Source of the DNA: a bacterium
Lineage (GTDB): Bacteria; Sysuimicrobiota; Sysuimicrobiia; Sysuimicrobiales; Humicultoraceae
Direction: 5' to 3'
DNA: 64,000 nt
NCBI GenBank assembly: GCA_050695215.1
Contig: JBOGSD010000068.1
Location: forward strand, 25,097 to 89,096
Below the pieces are notes generated by a model. It saw nothing but the letters and a program-made list of their open reading frames with translations. It ran no database searches and had not been told where the DNA came from. Each line of letters starts with the position of its first letter. Within the stretch, counting starts at the first letter, position 1. The translations under genes and the position numbers were made by a program. Shown in pieces: positions 4,108 through 40,319 of the stretch.

Positions 4108-4121
4108 CGAACGAGTGTTTG
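4108..4121 (+). promoter_or_regulatory. Candidate LexA (SOS) box CGAACGAGTGTTTG
   Basis: Cheo-type GAAC-N4-GTTC-like palindrome between divergent lexA and the recombinase operon. The same CGAAC-N4-GTTTG form occurs upstream of recA at 39587-39600. Confidence 0.5.
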
Positions 4122-4139
4122 CCCGGCCCGCGGCGCCGG

Positions 4140-4148
4140 TGGTATAAT
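4140..4148 (+). promoter_or_regulatory. Extended -10 element TGGTATAAT for lexA
   Basis: TGnTATAAT lies about 55 nt upstream of the lexA ATG and just downstream of the candidate SOS box. Confidence 0.35.
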
Positions 4149-4204
4149 CCCTCCGCACTCCCGAAGGAGCCCGAACCTCACATCCCTGCAAGGAGGCCGC
4201 CACC

Positions 4205-4828
4205 ATGGGTCGAGCGCTGACGCGGCGCCAGGCGGAAATTCTCACTTTCATTCAACGGTACAGTGAGACGCACGGCTACCCGCCGTCGGTGCGTGAGATC
4301 GGCCGGGCCCTCGGTTTGACCAGCAGCTCGACGGTCCACAGCCATCTGGCTGCGCTGGAAAAGAAAGGCTACCTGCACCGCGACCCATCGAAGCCCCGCG
4401 CGCTGGAGATCCTCCGGGACGAGCACGCCATGGCGCCCAAGAAGATGGTGCCGCTGCCGGTCGTCGGCCGGGTGGCCGCCGGCACCCCGATTCTGGCCGA
4501 GGAGAACATCGAAGACTACCTGCCGCTGCCGACCGAGTTCCTGCGCGACGGCGGCGACGGCGGCTTCATCTTGCACGTCCGCGGCGACAGCATGATCGAC
4601 GACGGTATCCAGGACGGGGATTATCTCATCGTCCGCAAGCAGCCGACGGCCCGGGACGGCGACATCGTCGTGGCCCGTTTGGATGACGGCGCCACCGTGA
4701 AGCGCTTCTACCGTGAGGACGGCCACGTCCGCCTCCAGCCCGCCAACGCCGCCATGGAGGCGATCCGCACGCGCGACGTCCACATCGAAGGCAAGGTTGT
4801 CGGTCTGATCCGCCGGATGGTCTCCTAA
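4205..4828 (+). CDS. lexA: LexA repressor
   Basis: N-terminal winged HTH (GYPPSVREIG). C-terminal S24 peptidase with AAG cleavage site and Ser/Lys dyad (GDSM...KRF). AAGGAGG RBS. Confidence 0.9.
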   Translation: MGRALTRRQAEILTFIQRYSETHGYPPSVREIGRALGLTSSSTVHSHLAALEKKGYLHRDPSKPRALEILRDEHAMAPKKMVPLPVVGRVAAGTPILAEENIEDYLPLPTEFLRDGGDGGFILHVRGDSMIDDGIQDGDYLIVRKQPTARDGDIVVARLDDGATVKRFYREDGHVRLQPANAAMEAIRTRDVHIEGKVVGLIRRMVS

Positions 4829-6741: not shown

Positions 6742-6837
6742 GATGCCCAGCCGCGTGGGCTCGAGCAGCAGGGCCAGCCCGTTGCCGAGGGCCTCTAGCA
6801 GGGCGCGCCCCAGGTACCCTGGTGCGGGGCGGTGAGC

Positions 6838-7917
6838 CTAGATGTCGACGTTGTACTTGGCCCGCAGCAGATCCTTGATGAACTTCTGTACGTCCAGGGT
6901 CACGCGCAGCGACTTGATCACCGTGGCCTCCGACTTGTCGCCGCGGAGGAGCGTGTAGCCTTCCAGCACGTTCTTGCTCTTCTCCTTGAAGTCGGGATCG
7001 GCGTTCATCTTGTCGACCGCCTCCCACAGCGCGTTGAGCGCCTCGGGCGGGGTGCCCTGCGGCACCCAGAGCGCCTTCTGGAAGGTAAAGGCCGGGATCA
7101 GCAGCGCCTGGAGGGCCTTCCAGCGCGTCTGCCCGTCGGGCTTGCGCTTGTGGACCTGCTGGTAGAACTCGTAGATCGTGGGCAGGCGCGGCGCCGCCGG
7201 ATCGCGCCCGAGGACGCCCTGTTCGTTGGTGAAGCCAAAGGTGAAGAGCGCGCGCGCCTTGCCCTCCCGTTCCAGCGGCACCACCTGGGAGAGGTAGGCG
7301 GGCGTCGTCTGATAGTCGATATTGATCTCGCCCCGCTCGAAGGCCAGGCGGGCGGGGCCGCGCCCCTCGAACCCCATCACGCTGCGCACGTTCATGCCCA
7401 GCAGCTCAAACGTCAGCAGGACGGCCAGGTCGAGACCCGTCGCGCCGATGCCGCCGTAAACGAGCGGCTGGGTGGGCTTGAGCACATCCTCGGGCCGGCG
7501 GATCCCGGTGCCGGGCGAGACGTACACCGTGGCGCCGACGCCGTTGACCTTGACCAGTTTCCAGTTCTTGAAGTCGTAGCGCACCTGCGGAACGCCCAAG
7601 ATGTAAGGGATGATCGTCGAGCCGGAGGTGGCCAGGATCTGCAGTCCGTCCGGCTTGGCGTTCTGGACGTAGAAGTTGGCGCCGGTGATGCTGCCCCCGC
7701 CGGGCATGTTGCGCACGGAGACCCGGGGGTTTCCGGCGATGTGTTTTTCGAAGAAGGGCGCCAGGAAGCGCGTCTCGATGTCGGTGCCGCCGCCGGGCCC
7801 GAAGGGCACCAGGATCTCGATGACCTTGCCGGCGAAGTAGGGCGCCTGCGCTTGCGCCGGTCCCAGCCCGGCTGCGACCAGCGCAGCCGCTACCAGTAGA
7901 ACGATCCCCCGTCTCAC
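6838..7917 (-). CDS. tctC: Tripartite tricarboxylate transporter substrate-binding protein TctC (Bug family)
   Basis: Signal peptide followed by a Bug/TctC fold sequence (GGGTD, PGGG motifs). Confidence 0.85.
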   Translation of the reverse strand: MRRGIVLLVAAALVAAGLGPAQAQAPYFAGKVIEILVPFGPGGGTDIETRFLAPFFEKHIAGNPRVSVRNMPGGGSITGANFYVQNAKPDGLQILATSGSTIIPYILGVPQVRYDFKNWKLVKVNGVGATVYVSPGTGIRRPEDVLKPTQPLVYGGIGATGLDLAVLLTFELLGMNVRSVMGFEGRGPARLAFERGEINIDYQTTPAYLSQVVPLEREGKARALFTFGFTNEQGVLGRDPAAPRLPTIYEFYQQVHKRKPDGQTRWKALQALLIPAFTFQKALWVPQGTPPEALNALWEAVDKMNADPDFKEKSKNVLEGYTLLRGDKSEATVIKSLRVTLDVQKFIKDLLRAKYNVDI

Positions 7918-7966
7918 CCCGTCATCCCCCCTGTCTCACCTGTGACGCACGCTCCGATGCACTCCG

Positions 7967-9166
7967 TCACCCGCTGGTTGCGACGGCGCGCGCCGCCGCG
8001 CTCTCGAGCGGCCAGAGCGACACCGGCACGCAGGCAAAGCCTTCCATCAACCGGCGGGCGGTCCGCCGGGTGACGACCTTCTCGGCGACCCATTGCCCGT
8101 CCCGCCGCGCCACCAACGCGCCCACCTCGATCACACCCGCCGGATGGCCGACCCGCACCGTCCGCTCGCCGGCCGGACCGGGACGCGCCGCCTCGTGCGG
8201 CAGCGTCCCCTCGATCTGCGCCGCGACGGAGGTGGCGATGGCTCCCGTGAGCGCGTAGGAGCGGTGCAGCCGGCCCATCGACATGATCCGCCCGACCAGA
8301 TCGATGCGCTCTGCCGCCACCGCCGTCCCCTTCGTCGAGGTGTAGGTCGCCGGCGGCGAGATCCAGGCGAGTTTAGGCACCCCGGGGCTGCGGGAGGTGG
8401 CTTCTTCCATGCTCCGGGCGAGGCCGATGCGCACCCCCGCCGCGGCCCGCACCGCCTCGAGGCGGGAGAGCAGGGCGTCGTCGCCGTCGACCCGGTCCGG
8501 CATCTCCAGCCCGGTGAGCCCCAGATCCGCCGGCCGCACGAAGACCAGGGGGTTGGCCGCGTCCACCAGCGACACGGTGACGCCGCCCACGCCGGGGACG
8601 TCCAGAAGGTCGGTGGGATGGCCCGTCGGCAGCAGCCGTCCCGTCATCGAGCCGCCGGGATCGAGGAACTCCAGGCGGATCTGCCCCCCGCTCCCCGGGA
8701 CGCCGTCAATGACGAAGTCCCCCTCCACCCGCGGCAGCCCGCGGTCGGTAGGGACGTGGGCGATGATGCGCTTACGGGTGTTGGTCTGCCAGATGCGCAC
8801 CACCGTCACCGGGCCGGTCGCCTCCACCATGCCTTCCTCGATGGCAAAGGGGCCGACCGCCGAGGAGATGTTGCCACAGTTGCCGCCGTAATCGACCAGT
8901 GGCGTGGTCACACTGACCTGCCCGAAGGTGTAGTCGACGTCCGCGTCGGGGAGGGACGGCGGGGCAATGATCGCCGCTTTGCTGGTCGTGGACGTGGCGC
9001 CTCCCAGCCCGTCGATCTGGCGGCCGTAGGGGTCGCCGCCTCCGAAGATCGAGAGGATGACGCGGTCGCGGAGCGCCTCTTCGGCGGGGAGGTCTCTGCT
9101 GTGAAAGAAGACGGCCCGGCTGGTGCCCCCGCGCATCAGCACGGCCGGCACCCGACGCTGTCTCAT
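7967..9166 (-). CDS. PrpF/AcnD-accessory family isomerase (2-methylaconitate isomerase-like)
   Basis: N-terminus VPAVLMRGGTSRAVFF matches the PrpF MRGGTSKGVFF motif. Start chosen at the internal Met preceded by GGGAGAGGGG. Confidence 0.75.
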   Translation of the reverse strand: MRQRRVPAVLMRGGTSRAVFFHSRDLPAEEALRDRVILSIFGGGDPYGRQIDGLGGATSTTSKAAIIAPPSLPDADVDYTFGQVSVTTPLVDYGGNCGNISSAVGPFAIEEGMVEATGPVTVVRIWQTNTRKRIIAHVPTDRGLPRVEGDFVIDGVPGSGGQIRLEFLDPGGSMTGRLLPTGHPTDLLDVPGVGGVTVSLVDAANPLVFVRPADLGLTGLEMPDRVDGDDALLSRLEAVRAAAGVRIGLARSMEEATSRSPGVPKLAWISPPATYTSTKGTAVAAERIDLVGRIMSMGRLHRSYALTGAIATSVAAQIEGTLPHEAARPGPAGERTVRVGHPAGVIEVGALVARRDGQWVAEKVVTRRTARRLMEGFACVPVSLWPLESAAARAVATSG

Positions 9167-9182
9167 CCCAGACCCCTCTCCC

Positions 9183-11548: not shown

Positions 11549-11550
11549 CG

Positions 11551-13317: not shown

Positions 13318-13346
13318 GCGCCGGTGAGTGGGATCGATCGCGCGGG

Positions 13347-14588: not shown

Positions 14589-14608
14589 TGCTCCACCATC
14601 TTCCGCCT

Positions 14609-15514: not shown

Positions 15515-15574
15515 CCGCCGCGGCGTCAGCCCTCCCTCCGCCGCGGCGTTAGCCGTCCTTCACCGCCCCGAGGA

Positions 15575-17281
15575 TCATCGTCGGAGGAACCAGCGTTCGA
15601 GGGTAGGCCGGGAGACCCAGACCATCGTGGGGCGGCCGTGGAAGCAGGTGAACGGATCCTCCGTCGCCTCGAGGTCGGCCAGCAGGCCGGTCATCTCGGC
15701 CTCAGTGAGCGGGTCCCCGGCGCGCACCGCGGTGTGGCAGGCGGTGGCGATGGCCAGACGCGCCACCGCTCCGTCGCCGCTGCCCGGCTCCAGGAGGGCG
15801 CCGAGCACGCGGTGCAGCAGCCGGTCTGGGGCCTGGCGGCGCAATGCCGCGGGGATCGCCCGCACCAGGAGCGTCGATCCGCCGAACGGCTCGAGGGCGA
15901 AGCCCAACCGCACGGAGGCGGGCAGGAATTCATCCAGCACCCCCATCTCCTCGGCGCTGAGCTCCACCGGCACCGGGGCCGTCAATGCCTGCGCTGCTTG
16001 GGGCCCGCCGGCCCGACGCAGCAGCCGCTCGTAGAGGATGCGCTCGTGTGCGGCGTGCTGGTCGATCAGGACCAGCCCGTCGGCAGCCTCGGCCAACAGA
16101 TAGGTCCGCAGGATCTGCCCGAGCGGGCGCAGCGCGGGCAGCCGCCTTCCCTCCTCCACCGGCAGCGCCGGAGGAGCCCCGGTGAGTGTGGTTCCGGCGT
16201 AGAGCGGGGCGGGTTCGGCGATCGTGGAAGCGATCGCAGAGGCGAGAGCGCCGCCGACCGCGACGGCCGCGAGGTCCGGCGCCGCGCGGAGCGCCCCCGG
16301 CGCCACGAGCGCGTCGCGCACCGCCCGCTGCGCCGCCACGAAGACGCGGTGCTCGTCGCCGAAGCGCACCTCGTGCTTGCGCGGATGGACGTTGACGTCC
16401 ACCGCCGCCGGGGCGATGTCCAGGAAGAGGACGACCACGGGCGCGAGCCCCACGGGCAGGAGTTCCGCGTACCCTTGCGCGACCGCCCGGGAGAGCAGCC
16501 GGCTTTGGATGGGACGGCGGTTGACAAAGAGATACTCGATGGGCCGCCCCGGACGCGCGCGCTCGGGGCGGACGGTCCAGCCGGAGACGGACAGCCCGCT
16601 GCCCTCTCTGCGCAGCGGGACCATCGCGGCGCCGAGGTCGCGGCCGAGGACCTGCGCCAGGCGCTCTTCGGGATCCGCCGCGGGGTAGGCGAAGGTTTCT
16701 CGCTCTTCGTGGCGCAACCGGAAGGCCACCGCCGGTGCGGCCAGGGCCAACCGCTGGAGGGTCTCGGCGATCAAGGCAAACTCCCGTGCCGCCGACTTGA
16801 GGAACTTGCGCCGGGCGGGGGTGTTGAAGAAGAGCGATTCGACCATGACCACGGTGCCGGGGGCGGTTCCGCTGACGCTGATGCGGGCGGCGCTCCCTCC
16901 CTCGCTCTCCACGCGCGTGCCGGCGTCGGCGGCGGGAGGGCGGGTATTCAGCGCCAGCCGGCTCACCGCGGCGATGCTGGGAAGCGCTTCACCGCGGAAG
17001 CCGAACGTGGCGATGCGTTCCAAGTCGTCGGCCGCGCCGATCTTGCTGGTGGCGAAGCGGCGCACCGCCAGGGCGGCATCGTCGGGGTCCATGCCGGCCC
17101 CGTCATCACTGACTCGGATGAGTGCGAGGCCCGCCCCCAGGATTTCAACGGTGATCGAGTGCGCGCCGGCGTCGAGACTGTTCTCGACCAGTTCCTTCAC
17201 GACCGAGGCGGGACGCTCCACCACCTCGCCGGCGGCGATCCGGTCGGCGACATGCTGATCGAGGACGTGGATCCGGCTCAC
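15575..17281 (-). CDS. mutL: DNA mismatch repair protein MutL
   Basis: GHKL ATPase N-terminus (ELVENSLDAGA), transducer domain and C-terminal dimerisation domain. 4-nt overlap with mutS. Confidence 0.9.
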   Translation of the reverse strand: MSRIHVLDQHVADRIAAGEVVERPASVVKELVENSLDAGAHSITVEILGAGLALIRVSDDGAGMDPDDAALAVRRFATSKIGAADDLERIATFGFRGEALPSIAAVSRLALNTRPPAADAGTRVESEGGSAARISVSGTAPGTVVMVESLFFNTPARRKFLKSAAREFALIAETLQRLALAAPAVAFRLRHEERETFAYPAADPEERLAQVLGRDLGAAMVPLRREGSGLSVSGWTVRPERARPGRPIEYLFVNRRPIQSRLLSRAVAQGYAELLPVGLAPVVVLFLDIAPAAVDVNVHPRKHEVRFGDEHRVFVAAQRAVRDALVAPGALRAAPDLAAVAVGGALASAIASTIAEPAPLYAGTTLTGAPPALPVEEGRRLPALRPLGQILRTYLLAEAADGLVLIDQHAAHERILYERLLRRAGGPQAAQALTAPVPVELSAEEMGVLDEFLPASVRLGFALEPFGGSTLLVRAIPAALRRQAPDRLLHRVLGALLEPGSGDGAVARLAIATACHTAVRAGDPLTEAEMTGLLADLEATEDPFTCFHGRPTMVWVSRPTLERWFLRR

Positions 17282-19953: not shown

Positions 19954-20077
19954 CCAGCGCAGCCCTCGCGGTTGTGGCTGTTCTGGTCAGGACCGAGGAA
20001 TCCTGCCCCTCCATGGCGAATAATGAGAGTTGGAGCGGCCCCGAACGCCCCCACATCATCCTCCTTCGAGGTGCATC

Positions 20078-20632: not shown

Positions 20633-20639
20633 CAGCCTT

Positions 20640-21251: not shown

Positions 21252-21316
21252 AGCGGGAACGGCGTCAGTATAGCCGGAATGATCTGAGCGGAAAGTACGA
21301 AAAGGGGGAGTGGGAC

Positions 21317-21956: not shown

Positions 21957-22047
21957 ATCGCTCAAGCAGTCTTATCCTGAGAGGTATGCTATCATGAGCG
22001 CAAAGACCGGCGCGGGCCGTCATTCACGCCACGTTTCGGAGGACTCC

Positions 22048-23238: not shown

Positions 23239-23242
23239 CGGG

Positions 23243-25249: not shown

Positions 25250-26682
25250 CGCAGCGCGGAGAAGGCCGCGACGACGGCCTCGACGTCGTCCGGCGAAAGC
25301 GTCCGTAGATTCAGCAGGAGAGCTTCGTCCTGAATGCGCGCGATCACCGGCGGACGAGCCTGGCGGAGCTGCGCCGCCCAGGCCTCCGCTCCGGCTCGGC
25401 GGGGACGCACCCGCACTGCCGACGACGACAGGCCGGCCTCGGGGAGCGCTCCTCCCCCCACCTGTGCCTCGGCGCCGACGACGGCCACCTCCGCGCCTTC
25501 TCCGAGTCGCTCTCTCAGGCGGTCCGCGAGCCGCTGCGCTCGCGCCTCCAATTCCTCGGGGCCGGCCGCCAGCATCTGCAGAATGGGAATCTGCGCCCAC
25601 GCCTCTCCGGGCGTCAGGTAATGGCGCAGCGTCGCCGCCAATGCGGCCAGGTCGAGCCGGTCGATGCGGAGCGCCCGCGCCAGGGGATGACCGCGGCAGC
25701 GGCTGACCGCCTCCTTCGTCCCTACCAGCAGGCCGGCCTGCGGGCCCCCCGCCAGCTTGTCTCCACTGAAGGTTACCAGCGCGGCGCCGGCGGTGACCGC
25801 GTCCTGCACCGTCGGCTCGCGCGGAAGGCCCCGCTCGGCCAGGTCCACCAGCGCGCCGCTGCCCAGGTCATACATGACGGGGATGCTGCGGCCGGCGGCC
25901 AGCGCCACCAGCTCGGGCACCGGCACCTCGTGGACGAACCCCGACATGGCGAAGTTGCTGCGGTGCACCTTCAGCACCAGCGCGGTCTGCGGCGTTAATG
26001 CCCGTTCATAGTCGGCCAGGTGGGTGCGGTTGGTGGTGCCCACCTCTACCAGCCGAGCGCCGCTTTGGGCCATCACCTCCGGCATGCGAAAGGAGCCGCC
26101 AATCTCCACGAGCTCGCCCCGTGAGACGATGACCTCGCGTCCCGCCGCGAGGGCGGCGAGACCGAGGAGGACTGCCGCCGCGTTGTTATTGACGGCCAGA
26201 GCGGCCTCTGCACCGCTGATCTCTTCCAGCAGCGTCTCGACGTGCGCCTGCCGCGATCCCCGGTCGCCGGTTTCGGGATCGATCTCCAGGAAGGTATAGC
26301 CGGTCAGCGCCGCCCGCACCGCCTCCTGGGCGGCCGCACTGAGCGGTGCTCTTCCTAGGTTGGTGTGAATGAGGATGCCGGTGGCGTTGACCGCGCGCAC
26401 CAGTGAGGGATGGCCATACCAGGCGAGGAGGCGGGCGCTGTCGGCGAGGACCTGCTCCGGAGCCCATCCGGCCGGAGCCGTCCCCTCGATTAGCCCGCTT
26501 CGGGCCTCCTTCAGCAGCCGGCTCCTCGCCGTCTCCAGCGCCTGGCGGACGAAGCGGGCGGCCAGCGGTCGTGGAATACCGTCAAGACGACCGGAGCCTT
26601 CCAGCTGCGAAAGCACGCGCTCTACCGAGGGGAGCTGACGAAGCCGCACATCACGCGGGTCAGGAGGGTCGGTCACCCCCAC
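25246..26682 (-). CDS. selA: L-seryl-tRNA(Sec) selenium transferase SelA
   Basis: SelA signature VNATGILIHTNLGRA. PLP-Lys region FSGDKLAGGPQAG. Confidence 0.88.
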   Translation of the reverse strand: MGVTDPPDPRDVRLRQLPSVERVLSQLEGSGRLDGIPRPLAARFVRQALETARSRLLKEARSGLIEGTAPAGWAPEQVLADSARLLAWYGHPSLVRAVNATGILIHTNLGRAPLSAAAQEAVRAALTGYTFLEIDPETGDRGSRQAHVETLLEEISGAEAALAVNNNAAAVLLGLAALAAGREVIVSRGELVEIGGSFRMPEVMAQSGARLVEVGTTNRTHLADYERALTPQTALVLKVHRSNFAMSGFVHEVPVPELVALAAGRSIPVMYDLGSGALVDLAERGLPREPTVQDAVTAGAALVTFSGDKLAGGPQAGLLVGTKEAVSRCRGHPLARALRIDRLDLAALAATLRHYLTPGEAWAQIPILQMLAAGPEELEARAQRLADRLRERLGEGAEVAVVGAEAQVGGGALPEAGLSSSAVRVRPRRAGAEAWAAQLRQARPPVIARIQDEALLLNLRTLSPDDVEAVVAAFSALR

Positions 26683-26691
26683 TCCTCCTCC

Positions 26692-28341: not shown

Positions 28342-28401
28342 CGACAGCCGTCCCGTCCGCCTCCGCGGCCCCCGCGCCGGCCGCCGCCTGAGGCATGGCG
28401 G

Positions 28402-29919: not shown

Positions 29920-30160
29920 TCCGATCGCGAGGGGGTCGATGGGTGGTCACCTCCTCTGCCCGCCTGATGGCGGGCGAATATGAGAACGGCGCCCCCGCGG
30001 GGGCGACCGTCACCCTGCTGCAGAACGCCGCGCGCATCACCTGCCGTTCGAGCGGAAATGAGCGCACAAGACCTATCTCCGTCATTCTACGCGAGAGGTC
30101 AAAAACAGGTCAAGAAACCCAGGACACTACCCGGCTCGGGGACCCCGGCCGCGGCGCTGG

Positions 30161-32395
30161 TCAGTGCGTCGTGGGGGGTGGCTGCCAGAGGGGCCCGGGC
30201 AGGTCGGGCGGCGGCGGCGCGGAGGCGTCCACGGGGATGACGCGGTCGGCGTAGGGTTCATACTCCGGGCGGCACGTAAACAGCAACACCTGGTGGGTCT
30301 CGCTGACGCGGCGCAGCAGGGCCATCGCCGCGGCCAGACGCTCCGGATCGAAGGAGCCAAAGGGGTCGTCCAGCAGCAGCGGCGGGCGCCGCCCCTCCGA
30401 GAGCACCTCCACCAGGGCCAGGCGGACGGCCAGGTAGACCTGGTCGGCGGTGCCCCGGCTGAGGGTCGGTTCGGCCGGCTCGACCCACTGTGCCGCCGCG
30501 TCGGCCCACACCGTGATCTGCAGCGGGTTTTCCGTGATGCTGACTCGCCCATACGCCGCCTGAGTGAGGAGGGCCAGGTACTCTCCCGCCCGCTCCTCCA
30601 CGCGCTGCCGGGCCGGGATCACGGTGAGCTCTCGGGCCAACCGCAGCCCTGCGGACGCCAGACGGACCACTCGTCCCCGACGCTCCGCCGTCTCGAGGGC
30701 CTCCTGCCGGTCGGCCAGGCGCTCCTCGGTGGCCGCCAGCGCTTCATCGTCGGGCGCGCCCTGGGCGGTCTCCCGCTCCAGATATTCTCGCCGCCCTGCG
30801 AGCGTATGCACCGTCTGGGTGAGGTCCTTCACCGTCCGCTCGAGCTGCTGCACCTCGAGGCCGGTGAGGCGTTTGGCCTCCGCGTCGCTCAGCTGAATCT
30901 CCCGTCCGGCCACGTCCGCGCGCCGCCGGTCGCGCGCCTCTCGGAGATCCGCAAGGTCCTGCCCGCCGAGATGGGCTGCCACCTGACTCCCGGTGCCGGT
31001 CCGGTCGTCTTCCAGCTGGCGCATCCGCGCGTGGCGCGCCAGCGCCTCCTCCACGGTGGCGCTCCCGGCCCCGGCGACCGTCTCTTGGAGGGCCGCCTGT
31101 GCCGCGATCAGTTCTTCCTGGGCCGCGGCGAGGTGTCGTTTGGCCTCCTCCAGCCGCAGGAGGGCCTCGGCGCGTGTCCGCGCCACGTCCTCACGGCGCC
31201 GCCGCCGCCGTTGCTCGAGGCCGAGCAGGAGGAGGCCAGCCAGGCCGGCCGCCACCGCCGCGGGCCAGAGGGGTCCGACCGACCAGACAGCCGCCGCCGC
31301 CGCGGCGACGGCGGCGAGGACGATCAGCAGCCAGCCGAGGGGTCGTCTCCGGCTCCGCGCGTCGACGGAGGCGGCGGATGCCGTCACGCTTCCGGTCAGC
31401 GTCTCGGCGGCACCGACCCTGCGTGCCAGGTCCTCGGCGGTCTTCTCCTGCTGCTGCACCCGCCCGGCCGCCGCGTGGATGCGGGCGACCGCGGTGTCGT
31501 CGGGGACTCCGCTGGCCTGGAGCGCCTCCAGGTCGCGCCCAATGCCTTCGAGGCGATCGTACCCTCGCTCGACGGCGTTCACGCGTTCCGCCAGTTGCCG
31601 GGCCTCCGCGCGGAAGTGCTCCAACTCGCGATCGATGCGGAGCAGCCGCTGGTTCTCGGTGAGCAGGGCCTCCCGGTCGGCGAGGTCGGTGGCCGCCCGG
31701 TCGGCCTCCTCTCGGAGGCGCCTGAGCTCCTCCCGCTGTCCCTCCAGCACCTCGACGCGGCGGCGGAGTCCATCCCGCTCCCGCGTCAGCGCGGCCACCT
31801 CGTCCTGCCGGCCGCGAATCACCCCGGGCGTTTTTACGGGACGACCATCCAGCCCCTTCTCCAGTTCAGCCAGTTCCTTGTCCAGCTTCTTGATCACTGC
31901 GCCCGCCTCGGCATCTCCCGGGCCGGCCTGAATGATGCGGGAGAGGCGCTGCCCGATGTCCGTGGCGCCTTTCTGCAGGACGGTCAGCTCGGTTTGCTCG
32001 ATCATGGCCGTCGACCGATACAAGGGCTCTGTGGAGAGGCCAAGGGCATGCTGCAGCCGTTCCTGGACCTTGCCGCCTTCCCACGACACGCCGTTGAGCA
32101 GATCACGGAGCTCCGTGCGGCGGTGCTCGAAATCCTTGCGCAGCTCGAAGCGCCTGCCGTCCAGCTCAAACTCTACGGAGATGGAGCCCACGCGGTCGCT
32201 GCCCCAGGGGCGCCACTCGGCGACCTTCTTGGCCGTCGTGGCCGGGTTGACGAAGAACGCGGCCAGGATGGCCTGACGCAGCGTCGACTTGCCGGCCTCA
32301 TTGGGACCGACCAGGAGGTTCAGGCCCGGATCGAAGCGGTACTCCGCATCGTCGAAGCGGCGGAAGTTGCGCAGACGGAGGGCGAGCAACCGCAT
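30161..32395 (-). CDS. sbcC: SbcC/Rad50-like DNA repair ATPase (744 aa)
   Basis: N-terminal Walker A GPNEAGKST, long coiled coil, C-terminal signature and D-loop (LLLDDPFGSFD). ATGA overlap with sbcD. Confidence 0.75.
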   Translation of the reverse strand: MRLLALRLRNFRRFDDAEYRFDPGLNLLVGPNEAGKSTLRQAILAAFFVNPATTAKKVAEWRPWGSDRVGSISVEFELDGRRFELRKDFEHRRTELRDLLNGVSWEGGKVQERLQHALGLSTEPLYRSTAMIEQTELTVLQKGATDIGQRLSRIIQAGPGDAEAGAVIKKLDKELAELEKGLDGRPVKTPGVIRGRQDEVAALTRERDGLRRRVEVLEGQREELRRLREEADRAATDLADREALLTENQRLLRIDRELEHFRAEARQLAERVNAVERGYDRLEGIGRDLEALQASGVPDDTAVARIHAAAGRVQQQEKTAEDLARRVGAAETLTGSVTASAASVDARSRRRPLGWLLIVLAAVAAAAAAVWSVGPLWPAAVAAGLAGLLLLGLEQRRRRRREDVARTRAEALLRLEEAKRHLAAAQEELIAAQAALQETVAGAGSATVEEALARHARMRQLEDDRTGTGSQVAAHLGGQDLADLREARDRRRADVAGREIQLSDAEAKRLTGLEVQQLERTVKDLTQTVHTLAGRREYLERETAQGAPDDEALAATEERLADRQEALETAERRGRVVRLASAGLRLARELTVIPARQRVEERAGEYLALLTQAAYGRVSITENPLQITVWADAAAQWVEPAEPTLSRGTADQVYLAVRLALVEVLSEGRRPPLLLDDPFGSFDPERLAAAMALLRRVSETHQVLLFTCRPEYEPYADRVIPVDASAPPPPDLPGPLWQPPPTTH

Positions 32396-33504
32396 CAGCC
32401 GGCGCCCGCCTCCGCCAGGAGCTGGCTCACCCCGGTCTGCAGCGCCTCCTCAAAGAGATCCTGCTCTTCCAGAGCCGCGGCCTGTGCCTGCTCACGCATC
32501 AGCCGGATGTAGCGTCCCACGAGCGTCCGCTCCGGGAAGGCGTTGAGCGTCTCCTCGTCCAGCCAGAGCCGCGACTGATTACGCACACGCGCGCGGAAAC
32601 ATCCTTCGGCGAGCTTCTCCTCCAGCTCCCGGGCCTCCAGGGTGTGCTCTGGCGTCACGGTTCCGCTCAAGACGACATCGAGCACCGCATCGGGGTTCGC
32701 CTCCGCGGCCAGCTGAGCTCGGACCCGGTCGGGATCGAGTCCGGAGATGTCCAGCTCCACCCGGCGGTAGCGCCGTCGTCCCACCGGGATGGGCGTGACC
32801 TCGGCTTGTCCGGGCGCGGGAATCGTGACCAGGAGCGCCTGTCCCGCTTCCTGGTCCATCGCCAGAAACTCCGGCGCTCCGGCGTACCAGGCGGGTGCGG
32901 GTGGAGGCGTGACCTGCTGGGCGGTATGCCAGTCGCCCAGGGCGAGGTAGTCGAGAGCGAGCGCGCGGATATCTGAGGGATGGATCGTGCCGGCCTCGAC
33001 CACGCCTTCCCGGTAGGCGCTGCCGTGGGCCAGGCCGATCGCAAAGCGGGCCCCCCGCTCCTTCGGCCAGGCGCGCAACGGTTGCGGCCCCTCTGGTCCC
33101 ACTGACTGGCCAACGACGGTCAGATCGAGATCGGGGTACGCTTTCACCCGAGGATCGGACCCAAAGAGCGTCACGTTGGAACAGACGTCTTCAATGCGGG
33201 CCCGCGCCCAGACGCTCCCCTCTCCCAGCCGGTCGTGGTTGCCGGCCAGCAAGGCGACGCGCACCCCTGCGTCGCGCAGGCGGAGGAATTGCTCACGGAC
33301 GAAGCCCAGCGTCCCCTCGCTCTGGCGGTGGGAATGGAAGAGATCTCCGGCGATGAGCAGCAGGTGGACCGGTTCGGCCAGCGCCACGTCGACGAGCCGG
33401 GCAAAGGTCCGCTGCAACTGCTCGCGGTGGTCCCGCCCGCGCTCTCCCAGGGCCGGAAAGGCCATCCCCAGGTGCACATCGGCCGTGTGCAAGAGCTTGA
33501 TCAT
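32395..33504 (-). CDS. sbcD: SbcD/Mre11-family nuclease
   Basis: Calcineurin-like phosphoesterase motifs (HTADVHLG, GDLFH, GNHD). Confidence 0.8.
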   Translation of the reverse strand: MIKLLHTADVHLGMAFPALGERGRDHREQLQRTFARLVDVALAEPVHLLLIAGDLFHSHRQSEGTLGFVREQFLRLRDAGVRVALLAGNHDRLGEGSVWARARIEDVCSNVTLFGSDPRVKAYPDLDLTVVGQSVGPEGPQPLRAWPKERGARFAIGLAHGSAYREGVVEAGTIHPSDIRALALDYLALGDWHTAQQVTPPPAPAWYAGAPEFLAMDQEAGQALLVTIPAPGQAEVTPIPVGRRRYRRVELDISGLDPDRVRAQLAAEANPDAVLDVVLSGTVTPEHTLEARELEEKLAEGCFRARVRNQSRLWLDEETLNAFPERTLVGRYIRLMREQAQAAALEEQDLFEEALQTGVSQLLAEAGAG

Positions 33505-33510
33505 TTCAAA

Positions 33511-33614
33511 GTGTCCGGCGGCCTCATCTTTTCGGCGTCTCCGGCGGCCTCATCTTTTCGGCGTCTCCGGCGGCCTCATCATTCCGGCGTCTCCGGCGGC
33601 CTCATCATTCCGGC
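33511..33614. repeat. Tandem direct repeat, 26 bp x 4 copies (plus a partial fifth inside the helicase 3' end)
   Basis: Unit GTCTCCGGCGGCCTCATC(TT/AT)TTCGGC / ...ATTCCGGC repeated head-to-tail. Lies 7 bp upstream of the sbcD ATG and immediately after the helicase stop. Confidence 0.8.
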
Positions 33615-36600
33615 GTCTCCGGCAGCACCGGATCGCCTGTCGCGGTGTAGGGGCAGATCGAGTTGAAGGCGCAATAGCGGCAGGCCACATAGTAGTCGGG
33701 GGTGGCGATGAACTGCTGCGCGCGGACGCCCCCTGAGGCGTGCTCGATCACCTGTGTCGCCTCGGCCAGCATCTCCTCGTCCGGCGCGGTCTCTCCGACG
33801 AGCACCTGCTGCGGCCCCAGGAAGTGCAGTTCCAGCCGTTCCGGCGGTTTGCCGTAGACCTCCCGATAGGCTAGGGCGTAGATGCCGAGCTGGCGGCTCT
33901 CCCGCGCGCGACGGTCGGCGTCCTTCTGCGTGCGCACATCGCTGGTCTTAAAGTCGATGACGACCGCGTCAGATCCGCGCAGGTCGACGCGGTCCCAACG
34001 ACCTTTCACCCGGGTCAGCCCCACCTGGAAGGAAAAGGGCGCCTCCACGAAGGTGGGGCGCCGACCCTGGGCCTCCTGAAAATCGAAGAAGGTGCGCAGG
34101 ACCGCCCGCCCCTCCTCCATGCGCTGGTCCTCGTGCTCACGGCTGATGAACCCTTCGTTGATCCAGGCCCGCTCGAAGATCGTCAGCAGGTCGGCAGCGG
34201 TGACGGGCTGGGCGCGGGCGCGCCGGCGGTTGTACTCACGCACCGCCTCGTGCACGGCGCTGCCGTAGACGACGCGATGGTCGCGCAGCAGCGGCACGCG
34301 CAGGATGTGCGTGTACTTGAACTTCAGCGGGCAGGTCGCGTAGTCGTCCACCTGGCGAAACGAGAGGCTCAGCGGTTCCTCCGGCGGGATCACCCCGGCC
34401 AGGGTCTGCTGCCCCTCCGTGGGCGGCGCGTGCCGCTGGATCGTCTCCGTGGGGGCGGCTCGGAAGGCGGCGGACTCCGGCGCGGGACGGTCGAGCGCCT
34501 CCAGCACGAAGCGGCTGACCTTGCGTGGCCGCACCCCGCCGTAGTCGCGCGCGCTGGTCAGGTACAATTCGCGCCTCGTTCGCGTCATCGCCACGTAGAA
34601 GAGGCGCCGCTCCTCCTGCAGGTGGAAATCGCCCTGCGGCAGGAGATCCTTCACCAGCGGATCGGGCAGGGCGATCGGTTCCCCGCGGTTGCGCGTGGGG
34701 AAGCGGTCGGCCACGGCCGAGACCAGGAACACGACGGGAAACTCGAGCCCCTTGGCCTTGTGCACGGTGAGAACGTTGACGGCGTCGCTGTCGAAATCGG
34801 CCTCGGCCATCGCCGGGTCGTCCCCGGCGGCGATGAGGTCGTCCAGGTGCTTGACGAATTCGGGGACGCGATCGTAGGTGGCAATCTCGCCGTACCGCGC
34901 CACGATCTCGAAGAAACGGGCGAGGTTGCGCACGGCCATCTCGTCGGTGGGGTTCTCGGAGGTCGCCAACCGTCCCACCAGCCCGGTGCGGCTGACGAGA
35001 TAGCTGTAGAGGACACGCCCGGTGGGCTGGTCTTTCATCAGGCGGCGCATCTCGTCGAGGTCGTCGAGCAGGCGATCCAGCGCCGCCCGGGTCTCCGGCC
35101 CGATCTCTTCGGCCAGATCGGAGAAGGCGGTCAGTCGTCGGAAGACGTACTCCAGGGTCCGGTTCCGCCGGTTGGCATACGCCAGCGCCTTGGCCACGTC
35201 GGTCGGGCTGATCAGGTAGATCGGCGAGATCCCCAGGTAGTAGAGGCTGAGGTTGTCCGCCGGATTGGCCAGCGCCCGCAAGAAGGCGAGCACGAGGCGG
35301 ATCTCCTCCCGGTTGTAGAGCCCGCGGTTGCCGGTGAAGCGGTGCGGCACCCCCCGCAAGTTGAGCGCCCGCAGGAAGGGGTCGGCGTCGTGGTTGCTGC
35401 GGACCAGGATGGCGAAGTCTTTGTACCGGTACGCCGCGGCGGCCACCCGCTCGGCGATGTGCGCAGCCACCCCGTCGGCTTCACTGCTGAGGGTATCGAA
35501 GTGCAGGTGCTGCACCTCCGGACCCGTCGAGCTGGACGTGAGCCGTTTGTCGATCTGGTTGCGGACCTCCAGCCGGTCGGGATCGTTGTGGCGGATCAAC
35601 CGGTAGGCGACGTCCAGCACGGGCTGGGGTGAGCGGTAGTTGCGGGTGAGGACGACCTGGGTCGCGTCGGGATAGGTCGCGGTGAACCCCAGAATGTTGC
35701 TGATCGAGGCGCCGCGGAACTTGAAAATGGCCTGATCGTCGTCGCCGACGACGGTGACGGTGCGGTGCTGCCCCGCCAGCAGCTGCACCAATTGAAACTG
35801 CGCGTAGTTGGTGTCCTGAAATTCGTCCACCAGGATATAGCGGAACCGTTCCTGGTAGGCGCGCAGCACGCCGGGGCGCTCGCGGAAGAGGCGCAGGGGC
35901 AGCGTGATCTGGTCGCCGAAATCGAGCAGCCCTTCGCGCCCAAGCATTGTCTGGTAGACGCGGTAGGCTTGCGCCAGTTCGCCCTGCTTGCGCGCCGCGT
36001 CGGCCAATTCGGCGTCGTCGGAAGCCTGGGCGGCGGCCGCGGACACCCGCTCCGCGAAGGCAGCGTACTCCTCCGGTCCGGCGTCCTCGTCCTTCGCCCG
36101 GCTGAAGAGGGCGATGAGCGCCTCCACGTACCGGGTCGGGTCGCCGAGGGGCCGGTAGTACCGCAGGGGGAGCTCGAAGAGGCGGTCGCGCAGGAAGAGC
36201 ACCTGCTCGGCGCGGGAGAGGACGCGCACGTCCGGGGGCAGCCCCAACTCCAGGGCGTGCTGGCGCAGCACCCGGTCGCCGAAGGCGTGGAACGTGCCGA
36301 TGGTGATGTCCGTGTAGCCGTAGGGGGTGAGCAGGTCGACGCGTTCTTCCATCTCCGCGGCGGCCTTGTCGGTGAACGTGAGGGCCAGGATCTCCGAGGG
36401 GCGCGCGCGGCGGGCGGCGATCAGCCAGGCGATGCGGCGGGTGATCACCGACGTCTTTCCCGTCCCGGCTCCGGCGACGATGAGCAGTGGCCCTTCCCCG
36501 AACGTCACCGCGCGGAGCTGCTCTTCGTTCAACCCCTCCAGGGCCCGATCTGCCGCCCGTTCGGTCGTGCGGTCGCTGAAGCGATCTGGCGATCCCTTCG

Positions 36601-36670
36601 CGGCGAATTCTAAGATCAACTGGCCGCCGTCGGGGCGGTCAGGATAGCGCTGCAGAGGGCGTCCTGTCAT
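33605..36670 (-). CDS. UvrD/PcrA-like ATP-dependent helicase with C-terminal RecB/Cas4-type (Cys-cluster) nuclease domain (AddA/AdnB-like)
   Basis: Walker A AGAGTGKT and UvrD motifs. C-terminus carries CRYCAFNSICPY (Fe-S Cys cluster) and PD-(D/E)xK-like residues. Confidence 0.8.
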   Translation of the reverse strand: MTGRPLQRYPDRPDGGQLILEFAAKGSPDRFSDRTTERAADRALEGLNEEQLRAVTFGEGPLLIVAGAGTGKTSVITRRIAWLIAARRARPSEILALTFTDKAAAEMEERVDLLTPYGYTDITIGTFHAFGDRVLRQHALELGLPPDVRVLSRAEQVLFLRDRLFELPLRYYRPLGDPTRYVEALIALFSRAKDEDAGPEEYAAFAERVSAAAAQASDDAELADAARKQGELAQAYRVYQTMLGREGLLDFGDQITLPLRLFRERPGVLRAYQERFRYILVDEFQDTNYAQFQLVQLLAGQHRTVTVVGDDDQAIFKFRGASISNILGFTATYPDATQVVLTRNYRSPQPVLDVAYRLIRHNDPDRLEVRNQIDKRLTSSSTGPEVQHLHFDTLSSEADGVAAHIAERVAAAAYRYKDFAILVRSNHDADPFLRALNLRGVPHRFTGNRGLYNREEIRLVLAFLRALANPADNLSLYYLGISPIYLISPTDVAKALAYANRRNRTLEYVFRRLTAFSDLAEEIGPETRAALDRLLDDLDEMRRLMKDQPTGRVLYSYLVSRTGLVGRLATSENPTDEMAVRNLARFFEIVARYGEIATYDRVPEFVKHLDDLIAAGDDPAMAEADFDSDAVNVLTVHKAKGLEFPVVFLVSAVADRFPTRNRGEPIALPDPLVKDLLPQGDFHLQEERRLFYVAMTRTRRELYLTSARDYGGVRPRKVSRFVLEALDRPAPESAAFRAAPTETIQRHAPPTEGQQTLAGVIPPEEPLSLSFRQVDDYATCPLKFKYTHILRVPLLRDHRVVYGSAVHEAVREYNRRRARAQPVTAADLLTIFERAWINEGFISREHEDQRMEEGRAVLRTFFDFQEAQGRRPTFVEAPFSFQVGLTRVKGRWDRVDLRGSDAVVIDFKTSDVRTQKDADRRARESRQLGIYALAYREVYGKPPERLELHFLGPQQVLVGETAPDEEMLAEATQVIEHASGGVRAQQFIATPDYYVACRYCAFNSICPYTATGDPVLPETPE

Positions 36671-37359
36671 GAGGGGTCCAGGACCTCGTTCCTCCCCCGC
36701 CGCCGCAGGGTTCCGCCGTTCGGGCCAGGGCCCAACTGCCGCGCGGCCTCCCTGAGGATCGGGGCGATGGTGCTGCCGGAGAATCCCCGCCGCCTGAGGA
36801 GACCGGCCAGGCGGCGCAGGCGAACATCCAGGGTGAGCGCCTGTCCGCGGCTCAGATAGCGCGCCGCCGCGGCGGCCGCCATCTGCTCCTCCTGCTCCGG
36901 TGGCAGCGCCGCGCGCAGCGTCTCCTCGATGATGTCGGAGGCGACGCCCTTGAGGCGGAGCTCGGCCCGCAGCCGGTGCGGCCCTCTGCGGCCCGCGGCG
37001 AGCCGGCCATCGATCCAGAGCCTGGCAAAACGCCGGTCGTCGATCGTCCCGGCCTGAACCAGGTCGGTCAGCACCGCCTCCACGGCGGGGAGGGCGAAGC
37101 CCCGCCTTCGGAGCCGTCCGGTCAGTTCTGCCCGGCTGCGCGGGCGGTAGCGCAGGAGCGCCAGGGCGGCCTCACGGGCACGAGTCTCCTCGTCCAGCGT
37201 GGCGAGGCGTGTGAGGACCAGCGCGTCGATCTCCGTTGCCTCGGTAAGGGCAAGAGGGAGAGCGCGTTCCGCGTCCACCAAGAACCGGCGGCTATCGGCA
37301 AGCGTGACGGCGCGCAAGTGGCCCCCCCGTCCCGCCGGCCGGATTCGTCCGATCTGCAT
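36667..37359 (-). CDS. recX: RecA regulator RecX
   Basis: Triple helical repeat RecX-like sequence immediately downstream of recA. Confidence 0.75.
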   Translation of the reverse strand: MQIGRIRPAGRGGHLRAVTLADSRRFLVDAERALPLALTEATEIDALVLTRLATLDEETRAREAALALLRYRPRSRAELTGRLRRRGFALPAVEAVLTDLVQAGTIDDRRFARLWIDGRLAAGRRGPHRLRAELRLKGVASDIIEETLRAALPPEQEEQMAAAAAARYLSRGQALTLDVRLRRLAGLLRRRGFSGSTIAPILREAARQLGPGPNGGTLRRRGRNEVLDPS

Positions 37360-37362
37360 TGG

Positions 37363-39516
37363 TCAGGCCTTGACCTTGACCGGCGCCTCCTTGACCCCTG
37401 TTGCTTCGCGCTTGCCCTCGGCGCCGTCGCGTGAGCCTGCGCCGTTGCGCCGGGGCAGTCCCAGCGTGTCCCGGGTCCGCGTCTCCAGCTCGCGGGCCAG
37501 CTCGAGATTGCTCTCCAGGAAATCGCGCGCGTTGTCCCGCCCCTGGCCCAGGCGGAGGTCGCCGTAGGAGAACCAGGTGCCGGTGCGGCTGATCAGTCCG
37601 GCGGCGTGCGCCGTGTCGAGCAGGCTGCCGGTCCGGGAAATCCCCTGTCCGTAGAAGATGTCCACCTCGGCGTCGCGGAAGGGCGGGGCGAGCTTATTCT
37701 TCACCACTTTGATCCGCGCCCGCATGCCCTTGATCTCTTCCCCGCTCTTGATGGACTCGATGCGGCGGATCTCCATGCGCACGGAGGAATAGAACTTGAG
37801 GGCGCGGCCGCCAGTGGTGGTTTCCGGCGAGTTGTGGACGACAGCACCGCCGACGAGATAGGTGTGGTTGCCCTCAACCTCCAGATCAAACCGCCGCATG
37901 GAGCGTGTCGGCGGCTTCTTGTAGATCCGGGCGATCCTCGCGGGGACGGCACGGAGATACCGTCGGGCCGAGAGGCGGGTTCCGTTCAAGTGTGCATCAC
38001 TGAGATCGGGCTGCCAGGCATATCGACCGCGCAACGTGGGGTGAAGCTTATAATCCACTGACGGATGGAGATAGGGGGCGATCAATTCATGAAACTTCGC
38101 GGTCTGCTCTGCCGTAAACCAAAACCCCCGGCCGTCATCACGCGGTCGACCCACTCCGAGCCGTTCAAACAGGGCGGCCACCCGTTCCCGGTCAGTGCCC
38201 TGAAGCGACGTGTTGTAAATCGCAGCCTTTCCGTGACCCCAGCGTGCAAAGTGCCCGGCGAAGGATCCGTCGTCGCCGTACCATACGGCCACGCCGCGGG
38301 CATCGAGTTGGTCAAGGACCGTTGCCGCGGCGGTTCGCTGGCCTTCGGCGTACAAACTGGTCCGCAGTTCAGCAAGCGTGGGGAATGCGAGTGTTTCAAA
38401 TCCCTGTCCATTGCCCCTGGGACCGAAGTCCTGCGAGAACGGTTCCAGCATCCAGTGCTTCCATCTCGCATATGCGGTTTGTGCTTCCCCATGGCCCACC
38501 CGGAAGGACGCCGCCTGGGTACTCACCTGCCGGAGCGCTCCGTCACCCAGCGTCCCGCCCAGGATGAGCTGCAATTGATCCTCGGTCAGACGGTAGTCTT
38601 CGACTGAAGCCAATACCTCGTCACCTTCGCGGAGCTCACCCGCGGGAACTTCTCCCCGGGGCGTGAATATCATGTGGTTGGGAGTAACGCCAAATCGGCG
38701 CCGGCCCGACGGACCCCCTTCGATCTCGAATTGGAGGAAATGCTCGGCGTTCCCATTGTCGAACCAATTCACGACGCGGCGCGGCTGCAGCCTCCCGGTC
38801 GCGGCATCGTAACTGAGCACCTCGACGGGTATCCGCTGGTTGACGATCTTGCCGATCTTCATTCTGCTTCCGTCAGCGAGCACGACGCGAGCATTGTAGT
38901 GGAAGCAGCCAAACATGACCCCGATCTTCTCTCGGATCTGGTTGATGAAGATCACGGTGGTGTGGGACTTGCTGATCGTCCCCACCAGTTTGCGCAGCGC
39001 CTGGGACATCAGCCGGGCGTGCAGGCCGACGTGGGCGTCGCCCATCTCCCCTTCCAGTTCAGCCCGCGGCACCAGCGCGGCGACCGAGTCGATGACGATG
39101 ACGTCCACCGCGCCGCTGCGCACGAGCATCTCCGCGATCTCGAGGGCCTGCTCGCCGCTGTCGGGCTGGGAGAGCAACAGGCCATCGATGTCTACCCCCA
39201 CGGCCCGGGCGTAGTTGGGGTCGAGGGCGTGCTCGGCGTCGATGAAGGCGGCGACGCCGCCGTCGCGCTGCGCCTCGGCGATGATGTGGTAGCCCAGCGT
39301 GGTCTTCCCGGAGGCTTCGGGCCCGTAGATCTCCACGACCCGCCCCCGGGGGACGCCGCCCACCCCCAGGGCCGCGTCCAGGGCCACCGAGCCTGTCGAA
39401 ATCACTTCCACCTGTAATTTGGCAGAGGCTTCGCCCAGCCTCATGATGGAGCCCTTGCCGAACTGCTTCTCGATCTGGGTCAAAGCGAGCTCCAACGCTC
39501 GCTGGCGCTCATTCAT
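37363..39516 (-). CDS. recA: Recombinase RecA precursor containing an in-frame intein (717 aa; exteins 203+155 aa)
   Basis: Exteins align with RecA: Walker [10 protein letters not shown], ...[10 protein letters not shown] | [14 protein letters not shown].... A 359-aa insertion begins with Cys and ends with HN followed by Ser. Confidence 0.92.
37831..38907 (-). mobile_element. RecA intein (RecA-b insertion site) with LAGLIDADG-type homing endonuclease domain
   Basis: N-terminal splice junction G|[15 protein letters not shown]-terminal block [14 protein letters not shown]|S. Two LAGLIDADG-like motifs ([23 protein letters not shown]). Confidence 0.85.
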
Positions 39517-39586
39517 GCCGCGATTCCTCCCTCAGTCACGCCGCCCCGCCCGGCCGCATCGTCCATTTGAGATGCCGCCACAGTAC

Positions 39587-39600
39587 CAAACAAATGTTCG
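39587..39600 (-). promoter_or_regulatory. Candidate LexA (SOS) box CGAACATTTGTTTG upstream of recA
   Basis: Same CGAAC-N4-GTTTG form and the same orientation relative to the gene as the lexA box. Lies about 70 nt upstream of the recA ATG. Confidence 0.5.
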
Positions 39601-40314: not shown

Positions 40315-40319
40315 GCCGC

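Follow-up and report, generated by a model that had tools for sequence, protein, structure and literature searches.

In the 64,000-nucleotide (nt) stretch of DNA analyzed here (positions 25,097 to 89,096 of contig JBOGSD010000068.1, assembly GCA_050695215.1, from an uncultured bacterium of the Sysuimicrobiota; hereafter the window), lexA and recA each carry in their predicted promoters one 14-nt sequence that resembles a LexA operator (SOS box) of the GAAC-N4-GTTC class. recA leads a cluster of five genes on one strand, which encode RecA, RecX, a helicase-nuclease fusion, and a pair of proteins resembling SbcF and SbcE of Bacillus subtilis. On the basis of sequence comparison, we have good confidence in the overall reading that both 14-mers are LexA operators and that the recA promoter most likely drives a transcript of all five genes.

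Probable LexA boxes in the predicted lexA and recA promoters

The lexA box (CGAACGAGTGTTTG; positions 4108–4121, plus strand) is located 84 nt upstream of the lexA start codon (ATG at 4205), and the recA box (CGAACATTTGTTTG; positions 39600–39587, minus strand) is located 71 nt upstream of the recA start codon (ATG at 39516). As the original prediction had it, each box reads CGAAC...GTTTG toward its own gene. Both agree with CGAACN4GTTCG at 13 of 14 positions, the sole deviation being T for C at position 13. The exact pattern CGAACNNNNGTTTG occurred twice in the window against 0.06 matches expected, and two matches were attained by none of 100 dinucleotide-preserving shuffles. Relaxed motifs were not enriched in the window: GAACN4GTTY gave four matches against 1.44 expected, which we counted as no enrichment, and CGAACN4GTTCG with up to two mismatches gave 42 matches against 39.9 expected. 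Therefore, the signal in the window consists of these two sites alone.

A scan of species-representative genomes for the helicase-nuclease yielded six relatives (L002–L007; 63–73% identity), whose source labels are Armatimonadetes/Armatimonadota, "Firmicutes", and "Bacillati bacterium ANGP1 isolate NP_7". Homologues of the terminal cluster gene led to four further recA loci (L162–L165), and the recA comparison set thus comprised 11 sequences including the window. The lexA comparison set consisted of the window and six loci (L082–L087; 80–98% identical) obtained from a metagenome scan with LexA; these six represent five distinct promoter sequences, L084 and L085 being the same, and four of the five have an identical box.

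The predicted lexA promoter (4119–4148, plus strand) is composed of a −35 hexamer TTGCCC (4119–4124), an 18-nt spacer, TG at 4140–4141, and a −10 hexamer TATAAT (4143–4148), and the promoter scan scored it at 10 of 12 consensus matches plus the TG. The box ends in TTG, which at the same time forms the first half of the −35 hexamer. In L082–L087, the box was found at the same place as CGAAC-N3-T-GTTTG-CC, followed by 18 nt and then GTGnTATAATCC; the box is present in all seven lineage promoters. When six of these promoters were aligned (L085, identical to L084, was omitted), only the box with the following CC and GTGnTATAATCC were invariant.

The predicted recA promoter (39608–39580, minus strand) has a −35 hexamer TTGACA (39608–39603), a 17-nt spacer, and a −10 hexamer TACTGT (39585–39580). 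The spacer is made up of TG, the 14-nt box, and G, so that the box fills the interval between the hexamers and its closing TG sits at the extended −10 position. In all 11 recA promoters, TTGACA-NN-box-G-TA is invariant, with the CGAAC and GTTTG columns of the box fixed, and all other columns vary.

The right half of the box is GTTTG in all 17 lineage sites compared. GTTTG may have been kept over the palindromic GTTCG because the T completes a promoter element in each case, TTG in the −35 hexamer of lexA and TG in the extended −10 of recA, and the shared orientation of the boxes relative to their genes would be accounted for in the same way.

With a weight matrix built from the lineage sites, we searched approximately 340 kb of lineage DNA. 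Beyond the known boxes, a single match scoring at least 14 was obtained, a weak one inside rny of L007. In the lineage loci, the matrix revealed no additional box, tandem or otherwise, at either lexA or recA, and none ahead of the helicase-nuclease gene or the sbcF-like gene. In metagenomic lexA loci, GAAC-N4-GTTC with at most one mismatch was present within 200 nt upstream in 36 of 76 cases against 2.8% of control windows. Separately, an exact GAAC-N4-GTTC palindrome (GGAACCAGCGTTCG; 15587–15598) falls within the 3′-terminal part of mutL, 72 nt before the miaA start codon; it fell below the matrix threshold and is probably a chance occurrence.

GAAC-N4-GTTC is the LexA motif of Firmicutes and Actinobacteria (PMC4951493). 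In Staphylococcus aureus, the consensus is CGAACAAATGTTCG and the lexA box is CGAACAAATGTTTG (PMC11442139), and the recA box of L002 and L005 is identical to the latter letter for letter. The boxes found here share with the Cheo box/DinR box (B. subtilis, CGAACATATGTTCG; S. aureus, CGAACAAATGTTCG) the same half-sites, a 4-bp A/T-rich spacer, the flanking C and G, and the location on the lexA and recA promoters. The Cheo-box-like match claimed in the original prediction is thus confirmed, with one mismatch in each box and conservation in every orthologous promoter compared. The differences are as follows: GTTTG, an accepted variant in S. aureus, is the right half of every lineage site and not just of some; lexA has a single box here, whereas tandem sites are common at lexA genes (PMC4951493); and the host belongs to an uncultured high-GC lineage, probably CSP1-3/Sysuimicrobiota, and is neither a Firmicute nor an Actinobacterium. 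These comparisons make it very probable that both 14-mers are LexA operators of the GAAC-N4-GTTC class; as a predicted LexA box, the motif is of a known class in a lineage where it was previously undescribed.

LexA and RecA

lexA (4205–4828, plus strand) encodes a protein of 207 amino acids (aa) and is monocistronic and convergent with tctA. The protein scored 248 bits against TIGR00498 (cutoff, 111), contains the Pfam domains LexA_DNA_bind and Peptidase_S24, and aligned with solved LexA proteins from end to end. In the alignment with LexA of Escherichia coli, the Ala-Gly cleavage site (VGRVAAGTP), the nucleophilic Ser (RGDSM), and the Lys (TVKRF) were matched, and by this alignment the cleavage and catalytic residues are intact. 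We take the recognition helix to be similar to that of B. subtilis LexA.

recA (37363–39516, minus strand) encodes 717 aa interrupted by an intein; the match to TIGR02012 (522 bits) is split into two stretches. The intein (37831–38907, minus strand; 359 aa) is predicted to contain a LAGLIDADG homing endonuclease and was recognized by LAGLIDADG_2 and by models of intein N and C termini. Its junctions (marked by slashes) are GVMFG/CFHY...VVHN/SPETTTGG, with an N-terminal Cys and a C-terminal His-Asn followed by Ser. RecA of orthologues without the intein is colinear across the insertion site. The intein is present in five of the 11 genomes (the window, L002, L004, L162, and L165) and absent from L003, L005, L006, L007, L163, and L164, a patchy distribution that is as expected of a mobile intein. 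RecA of Mycobacterium tuberculosis and Mycobacterium leprae likewise carries an intein. The insertion site here, in the GVMFG/SPETTTGG loop, presumably differs from the mycobacterial one.

The recA-led gene cluster

recA is followed on the minus strand by recX (36667–37359; RecX_HTH1, HTH2, and HTH3), which begins 3 nt after the recA stop codon, and then by the genes for the helicase-nuclease (33605–36670; 1021 aa), an Mre11/SbcD-family metallophosphoesterase ("sbcD"; 32395–33504; 369 aa), and an SMC-like ATPase ("sbcC"; 30161–32395; 744 aa). The recX stop codon overlaps the helicase-nuclease start codon by 4 nt (ATGA), and "sbcD" and "sbcC" overlap by 1 nt. The original prediction described a run of genes from recA to sbcC with overlaps or short gaps down to position 30161, where "sbcC" ends. 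The order and the junctions held. In the window, the helicase-nuclease stop codon and the "sbcD" start codon are separated by 100 nt. This gap is filled by a tandem repeat, which the original prediction did not mention (33500–33623; 26-nt unit, 4.8 copies, 92% matches in Tandem Repeats Finder), which duplicates the junction of stop codon, ribosome site, and start codon and thereby creates several mini open reading frames (ORFs) of 9–12 codons. The RNA fold of the repeat region was no better than that of shuffles (z = −0.66), and an exact look-up of the SbcD-like protein of the window, made to obtain the repeat number in other assemblies, returned no record.

In relatives, the helicase-nuclease/"sbcD" junction is an overlap or a gap of <30 nt, L162 excepted. 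In L162, the closest long relative, a gene for an N6/N4 DNA methyltransferase and an ORF of 303 aa without a Pfam match (6893–8889) occupy this junction; they are on the same strand, tightly packed, and exactly where the window has the tandem repeat. The two may be a restriction-modification pair that inserted into the operon, and homologues of them were not found in the other 80 helicase-nuclease loci.

All six of L002–L007 have the order cinA–ligT–recA–recX–helicase/nuclease–sbcD-like, followed by the sbcC-like gene and rny where the contig reaches (that of L006 ends inside the sbcD-like gene and that of L003 inside the sbcC-like gene). The order recA–recX–helicase/nuclease–"sbcD"–"sbcC" with its coupling was also found in L162–L165, giving 10 relatives in all, and overlaps of 1–4 nt or gaps mostly of <30 nt are kept at most junctions in these relatives. 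Homologues of the helicase-nuclease are spread over many phyla; the gene is linked to recA in this lineage only and in none of 74 loci of other phyla. By these comparisons, the recA-led five-gene cluster is a conserved organization specific to this lineage.

A scan of the window detected no terminator-like hairpin between the cluster genes. Ahead of rny, a weak hairpin with a U-run (30134–30119, minus strand) is followed by a promoter-like site (TTGACC-18-TAGAAT; 30113–30084, minus strand), and this is where the cluster likely ends on its downstream side. Past the last gene, synteny becomes looser in L005, L007, and L164, which have additional genes or wider gaps there.

Because gene order and translational coupling are conserved in 11 genomes, a single transcription unit is the most economical interpretation, and we consider it reasonably likely that a transcript started at the recA promoter extends as far as the last gene. 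The idea of a long recA-led SOS operon, put forward as a possibility in the original prediction, is upheld as such by the conserved order and overlaps in the 10 relatives and by the lack of an internal box or terminator. The arrangement has a parallel in mycobacteria, where recA and recX are co-transcribed (PMC3062782): in both cases recX directly follows recA in the same orientation, with an SOS box upstream. Unlike the mycobacterial operon, which is LexA-regulated, the cluster here has three more genes (for the helicase-nuclease, the SbcF-like protein, and the SbcE-like protein) coupled downstream.

Several observations weigh against the reading of LexA operators with a five-gene transcript. 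The consensus scan did not call the recA promoter, whose −10 hexamer matches the consensus at only three of six positions; TACTGT in the window is a poor −10 element. We nevertheless accepted this promoter because the relatives keep TTGACA, the box, and G-TA. The lexA set is shallower than the recA set, with L082 nearly a copy of the window sequence and L083–L087 sharing one and the same box. The motif was judged at two genes only, uvrA, uvrB, dinB, ruvAB, and imuB-dnaE2 lying outside the window and the lineage loci compared. At the cluster end, no clear intrinsic terminator was found, the fold after the last gene giving z = −0.75 relative to shuffles.

Further points on the same side concern the reach of the transcript, and they also favor the alternative that survives best: the boxes are genuine, but SOS control stops at recA or at recA–recX, the remaining genes being expressed from internal LexA-independent promoters or strongly attenuated, and the cluster is a functional grouping. 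Cells usually require much more RecA than nucleases. Where the helicase-nuclease gene begins, there is a weak promoter-like site (36670–36641; 9 of 12 matches); internal promoters are conceivable at 70% G+C, and in M. tuberculosis a recX promoter lies inside recA (PMC3062782). The 100-nt repeat in the window and the two genes inserted in L162 break the junction between the third and fourth genes, which therefore tolerates disruption. On the other hand, the overlaps and short gaps retained in the 10 relatives, the absence of terminator-like hairpins between the genes, the unremarkable fold of the repeat, and the weakness of the internal promoter-like site all speak for transcription through the cluster. 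We therefore regard an early stop of SOS control as the less probable outcome, though one that carries real weight, and favor the five-gene transcript.

The helicase-nuclease and the SbcF/SbcE-like pair

The helicase-nuclease is a fusion of a UvrD/PcrA-like superfamily 1 (SF1) helicase with a Cas4/AddB-like PD-(D/E)XK nuclease. It contains the domains UvrD-helicase, UvrD_C, and PDDEXK_1, and its nuclease part has a four-Cys module (C...CxxCx5C). Its best solved relatives are PcrA, UvrD, and AdnB, with AddA among the solved relatives as well, and its scores against the AddA and RecB equivalog models were far under the cutoffs. By domain content, it is a UvrD-Cas4-like (pfam12705) fusion, sharing with that family (PMC5704561) a UvrD-like motor followed by a pfam12705 nuclease with a Cys cluster. 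An SF1 motor and a PD-(D/E)XK nuclease in one chain are also common to AddAB, AdnAB, and RecBCD; unlike these enzymes, the helicase-nuclease has no adjoining gene for a partner subunit, and in each of the 11 genomes its gene is flanked by recX and the Mre11-like gene.

The names sbcD and sbcC given in the original prediction did not stand. The "sbcD" product contains a Metallophos domain and scored 56.4 bits against TIGR00619 (cutoff, 77.65) and 24 against NF041754 sbcd_Bac (cutoff, 750); Mre11 and SbcD were its best solved relatives over the N-terminal ca. 95 residues only. The "sbcC" product matched PF13514 AAA_27 (44.5 bits; cutoff, 22), AAA_23, and SMC_N. A CxxC zinc hook was found neither in the ATPase of the window nor in those of four relatives (L002, L004, L005, and L007). 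Instead, at residues 351–394, in the middle of the coiled coil, two adjacent transmembrane-like hydrophobic segments are split by a Gly/Pro turn, and the same feature is present in the four relatives. This hydrophobic hairpin occupies the place of the zinc hook of Rad50/SbcC and suggests that the coiled-coil apex inserts into the membrane. JGI, NCBI, and UniRef give the names "YhaN" or "YhaN family protein" to more distant homologues of the ATPase, every one of which has PF13514. We presume that YhaN of B. subtilis, at ca. 960 aa, is longer than the ATPase here (744 aa).

SbcE (YhaN) of B. subtilis is an SbcC-like protein without CxxC that has a unique hydrophobic central domain and is paired with the SbcD-like YhaO/SbcF (PMC2811018). 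Because "sbcC" lacks CxxC and has the hydrophobic hairpin and PF13514, and because "sbcD" scored under the SbcD cutoff, the pair is by these features SbcF/SbcE-like (YhaO/YhaN type), not canonical SbcCD. This identity gives the SOS reading a precedent, since yhaONM belongs to the LexA regulon of B. subtilis (PMC2731908); yhaONM is also damage-induced in Bacillus pumilus (PMC3896406). The SOS-controlled yhaO-yhaN-yhaM of B. subtilis comprises, as here, a pair of an Mre11-like phosphoesterase and a hookless SMC-like ATPase. It has its own degenerate LexA box, whereas the pair here has none and is proposed to be controlled by read-through from recA; moreover, the cluster contains no yhaM homologue. 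Another end-processing pair of nuclease and ATPase under LexA is sbcDC of S. aureus (PMC11442139), which, unlike the pair here, is canonical SbcCD with a box of its own (CGAACAAATGTTCT).

The Xer-like operon divergent from lexA

Upstream of lexA, a gene for a Xer-like tyrosine recombinase (3112–4020, minus strand; Phage_integrase and SAM-like N domains) is followed by orf143 (2684–3115, minus strand) and orf126 (2307–2687, minus strand), the latter encoding a lipoprotein-like product. The recombinase scored 178.6 against XerC (cutoff, 335) and 171.3 against XerD (cutoff, 330); by these scores it is only a Xer-like tyrosine recombinase, below the XerC/XerD equivalog level. The original prediction placed the lexA box in the divergent promoter of this operon. 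The box does lie within the 184-nt region shared by the two genes, whereas no promoter on the Xer strand overlaps it: the scan detected no such site, and inspection of the relatives by eye revealed no convincing pair of −35 and −10 elements.

It can be supposed that the lexA box acts in both directions and also represses the Xer-like gene, orf143, and orf126, as in the lexA–yneA region of B. subtilis with its SOS-induced yneB. The shared intergenic location of the box and the conservation of the Xer–orf143 arrangement beside lexA in L082 and L084–L087 are compatible with this, as is the precedent of B. pumilus, where the resolvase-like yneB, divergent from lexA, is in the lexA/SOS regulon and was induced 17-fold (PMC3896406). 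However, each intergenic region has one box, always joined to the −35 element of lexA, and the weight matrix found no second, degenerate box. The distance from the box to the Xer start codon ranges from 87 nt in the window to 99 nt in L084, and the intervening sequence is not conserved between the window/L082 and L083–L087. Because the box overlaps only the −35 element of lexA, lies 87–99 nt from the Xer start codon, and is not covered by a promoter on the Xer strand, co-regulation of the Xer-like operon is unsupported by these sequences, and we consider bidirectional repression quite unlikely.

Less likely readings: anti-phage defense and other origins of the signal

UvrD-Cas4-like fusions have been reported mostly beside Type III restriction-modification or Dcm/Vsr genes, and roles in defense or ancillary roles have been suggested (PMC5704561, Hudaiberdiev et al. 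2017). Accordingly, the helicase-nuclease and the Mre11-like/SMC-like pair could be an anti-phage defense module that lies downstream of recA by chance. The PADLOC models GajB, LmuB, PtuA, and mad3 gave matches, and in L162 a DNA methyltransferase gene and an uncharacterized ORF directly follow the helicase-nuclease gene. However, these PADLOC matches are generic to UvrD helicase cores and to ABC/SMC ATPase heads (PcrA scored 432 bits and GajB 316 bits), the Mre11-like protein had no PADLOC match, and a GajA-type partner was not found. The context differs as well: Type III Mod/Res or Dcm/Vsr genes in the reported family, and the recA cluster here. In seven loci of other phyla, a sample of ten ORFs flanking the helicase-nuclease gene included RmuC twice and RecJ once, the rest being unrelated housekeeping genes or unmatched, and restriction-modification genes were not found among them. 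In addition, the cluster occupies a fixed chromosomal place (cinA–ligT–recA...rny–ymdB) in all 11 genomes, unlike mobile defense islands, and in B. subtilis the repair of double-strand breaks involves SbcE (PMC2811018). A defense module is therefore improbable, and a repair module is preferred.

We give a very low probability, the lowest among the alternatives, to the reading in which the shared 14-mer arose by chance or belongs to a promoter architecture peculiar to the lineage and recognized by a different factor. In its favor, promoter elements are overlapped by the box at both genes, so that promoter conservation could account for part of the conservation of the box. Against it, the 14-mer is placed differently with respect to the hexamers at the two promoters (over the −35 at lexA, in the spacer at recA), and spacers do not normally keep their sequence. 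Its pattern agrees exactly with that of the S. aureus lexA box and with the LexA motif published for related phyla, and it is found on precisely the two SOS-core genes against a chance expectation of 0.06.

Proposed SOS control

In the mechanism that we propose, LexA (4205–4828) would bind both 14-mers as a repressor. LexA repression is the occlusion of RNA polymerase at the promoter, and a LexA dimer on the box would block the polymerase over the −35 element at lexA and within the −35/−10 spacer at recA. DNA damage would give rise to RecA filaments, which would trigger self-cleavage of LexA at Ala-Gly and open both promoters, resulting in a classical autoregulated SOS core of lexA and recA. 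From the recA promoter, one transcript would then cover recA, recX, and the genes for the UvrD-Cas4-like helicase-nuclease, the YhaO/SbcF-like nuclease, and the YhaN/SbcE-like ATPase, so that induction of RecA and of RecX, its brake, would bring with it the enzymes of DNA-end processing. From the conserved sequence features we infer LexA binding, damage induction, and co-transcription.

A broader proposal, which we offer tentatively and hold to be doubtful in its full form, is that throughout the lineage one LexA-repressed promoter may produce RecA and RecX together with a stand-alone UvrD-Cas4-like enzyme and a membrane-anchored SbcF/SbcE. The fusion, to date regarded mainly as a defense accessory, might then serve as an SOS-induced single-polypeptide end-resection enzyme that feeds RecA and is analogous in function to AddAB, AdnAB, or RecBCD.

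With the candidate operators, the range of the Gram-positive-type LexA box, and of a lexA/recA core under autoregulation, would come to include an uncultured lineage widespread in soil and groundwater; current views of the SOS response are left standing. The weight matrix is ready for SOS regulon prediction from metagenome-assembled genomes of the lineage. The cluster also provides a testable context, recombinational break repair under SOS, for UvrD-Cas4-like fusions and the SbcE/SbcF pair, both of which are poorly understood.

Genomic setting

The G+C content of the window is 70%. Genomes of the candidate phylum CSP1-3 (Sysuimicrobiota), to which the family NP-7 belongs, have 62–74% G+C (PMC11962464); judged by its nearest relatives, the window most likely comes from this phylum. 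The local gene order (cinA-recA-rny-ymdB, mutS-mutL-miaA, hflX, and lexA) otherwise looks Firmicute-like. A few kilobases downstream, L162 (20773–22232) and L163 (20527–22232) have genes for lipopolysaccharide transport to the outer membrane (lptF/lptG, lptC, and lptD-like).

Genes for selenocysteine incorporation, selB and selA, are located in the window at 23243–26682 (minus strand) between an unannotated region and PHP/ymdB/rny, and the order is the same in L162–L165. Upstream of recA, the longest ORF for a LigT/ThpR-like 2′,3′-cyclic phosphodiesterase (39706–40731, minus strand; 341 aa) overlaps the end of cinA (40320–41558, minus strand) by ca. 400 nt. Because the family match begins at approximately residue 146 and the proteins of the relatives were called at 198–219 aa, the true start is probably near 40300, directly after cinA.

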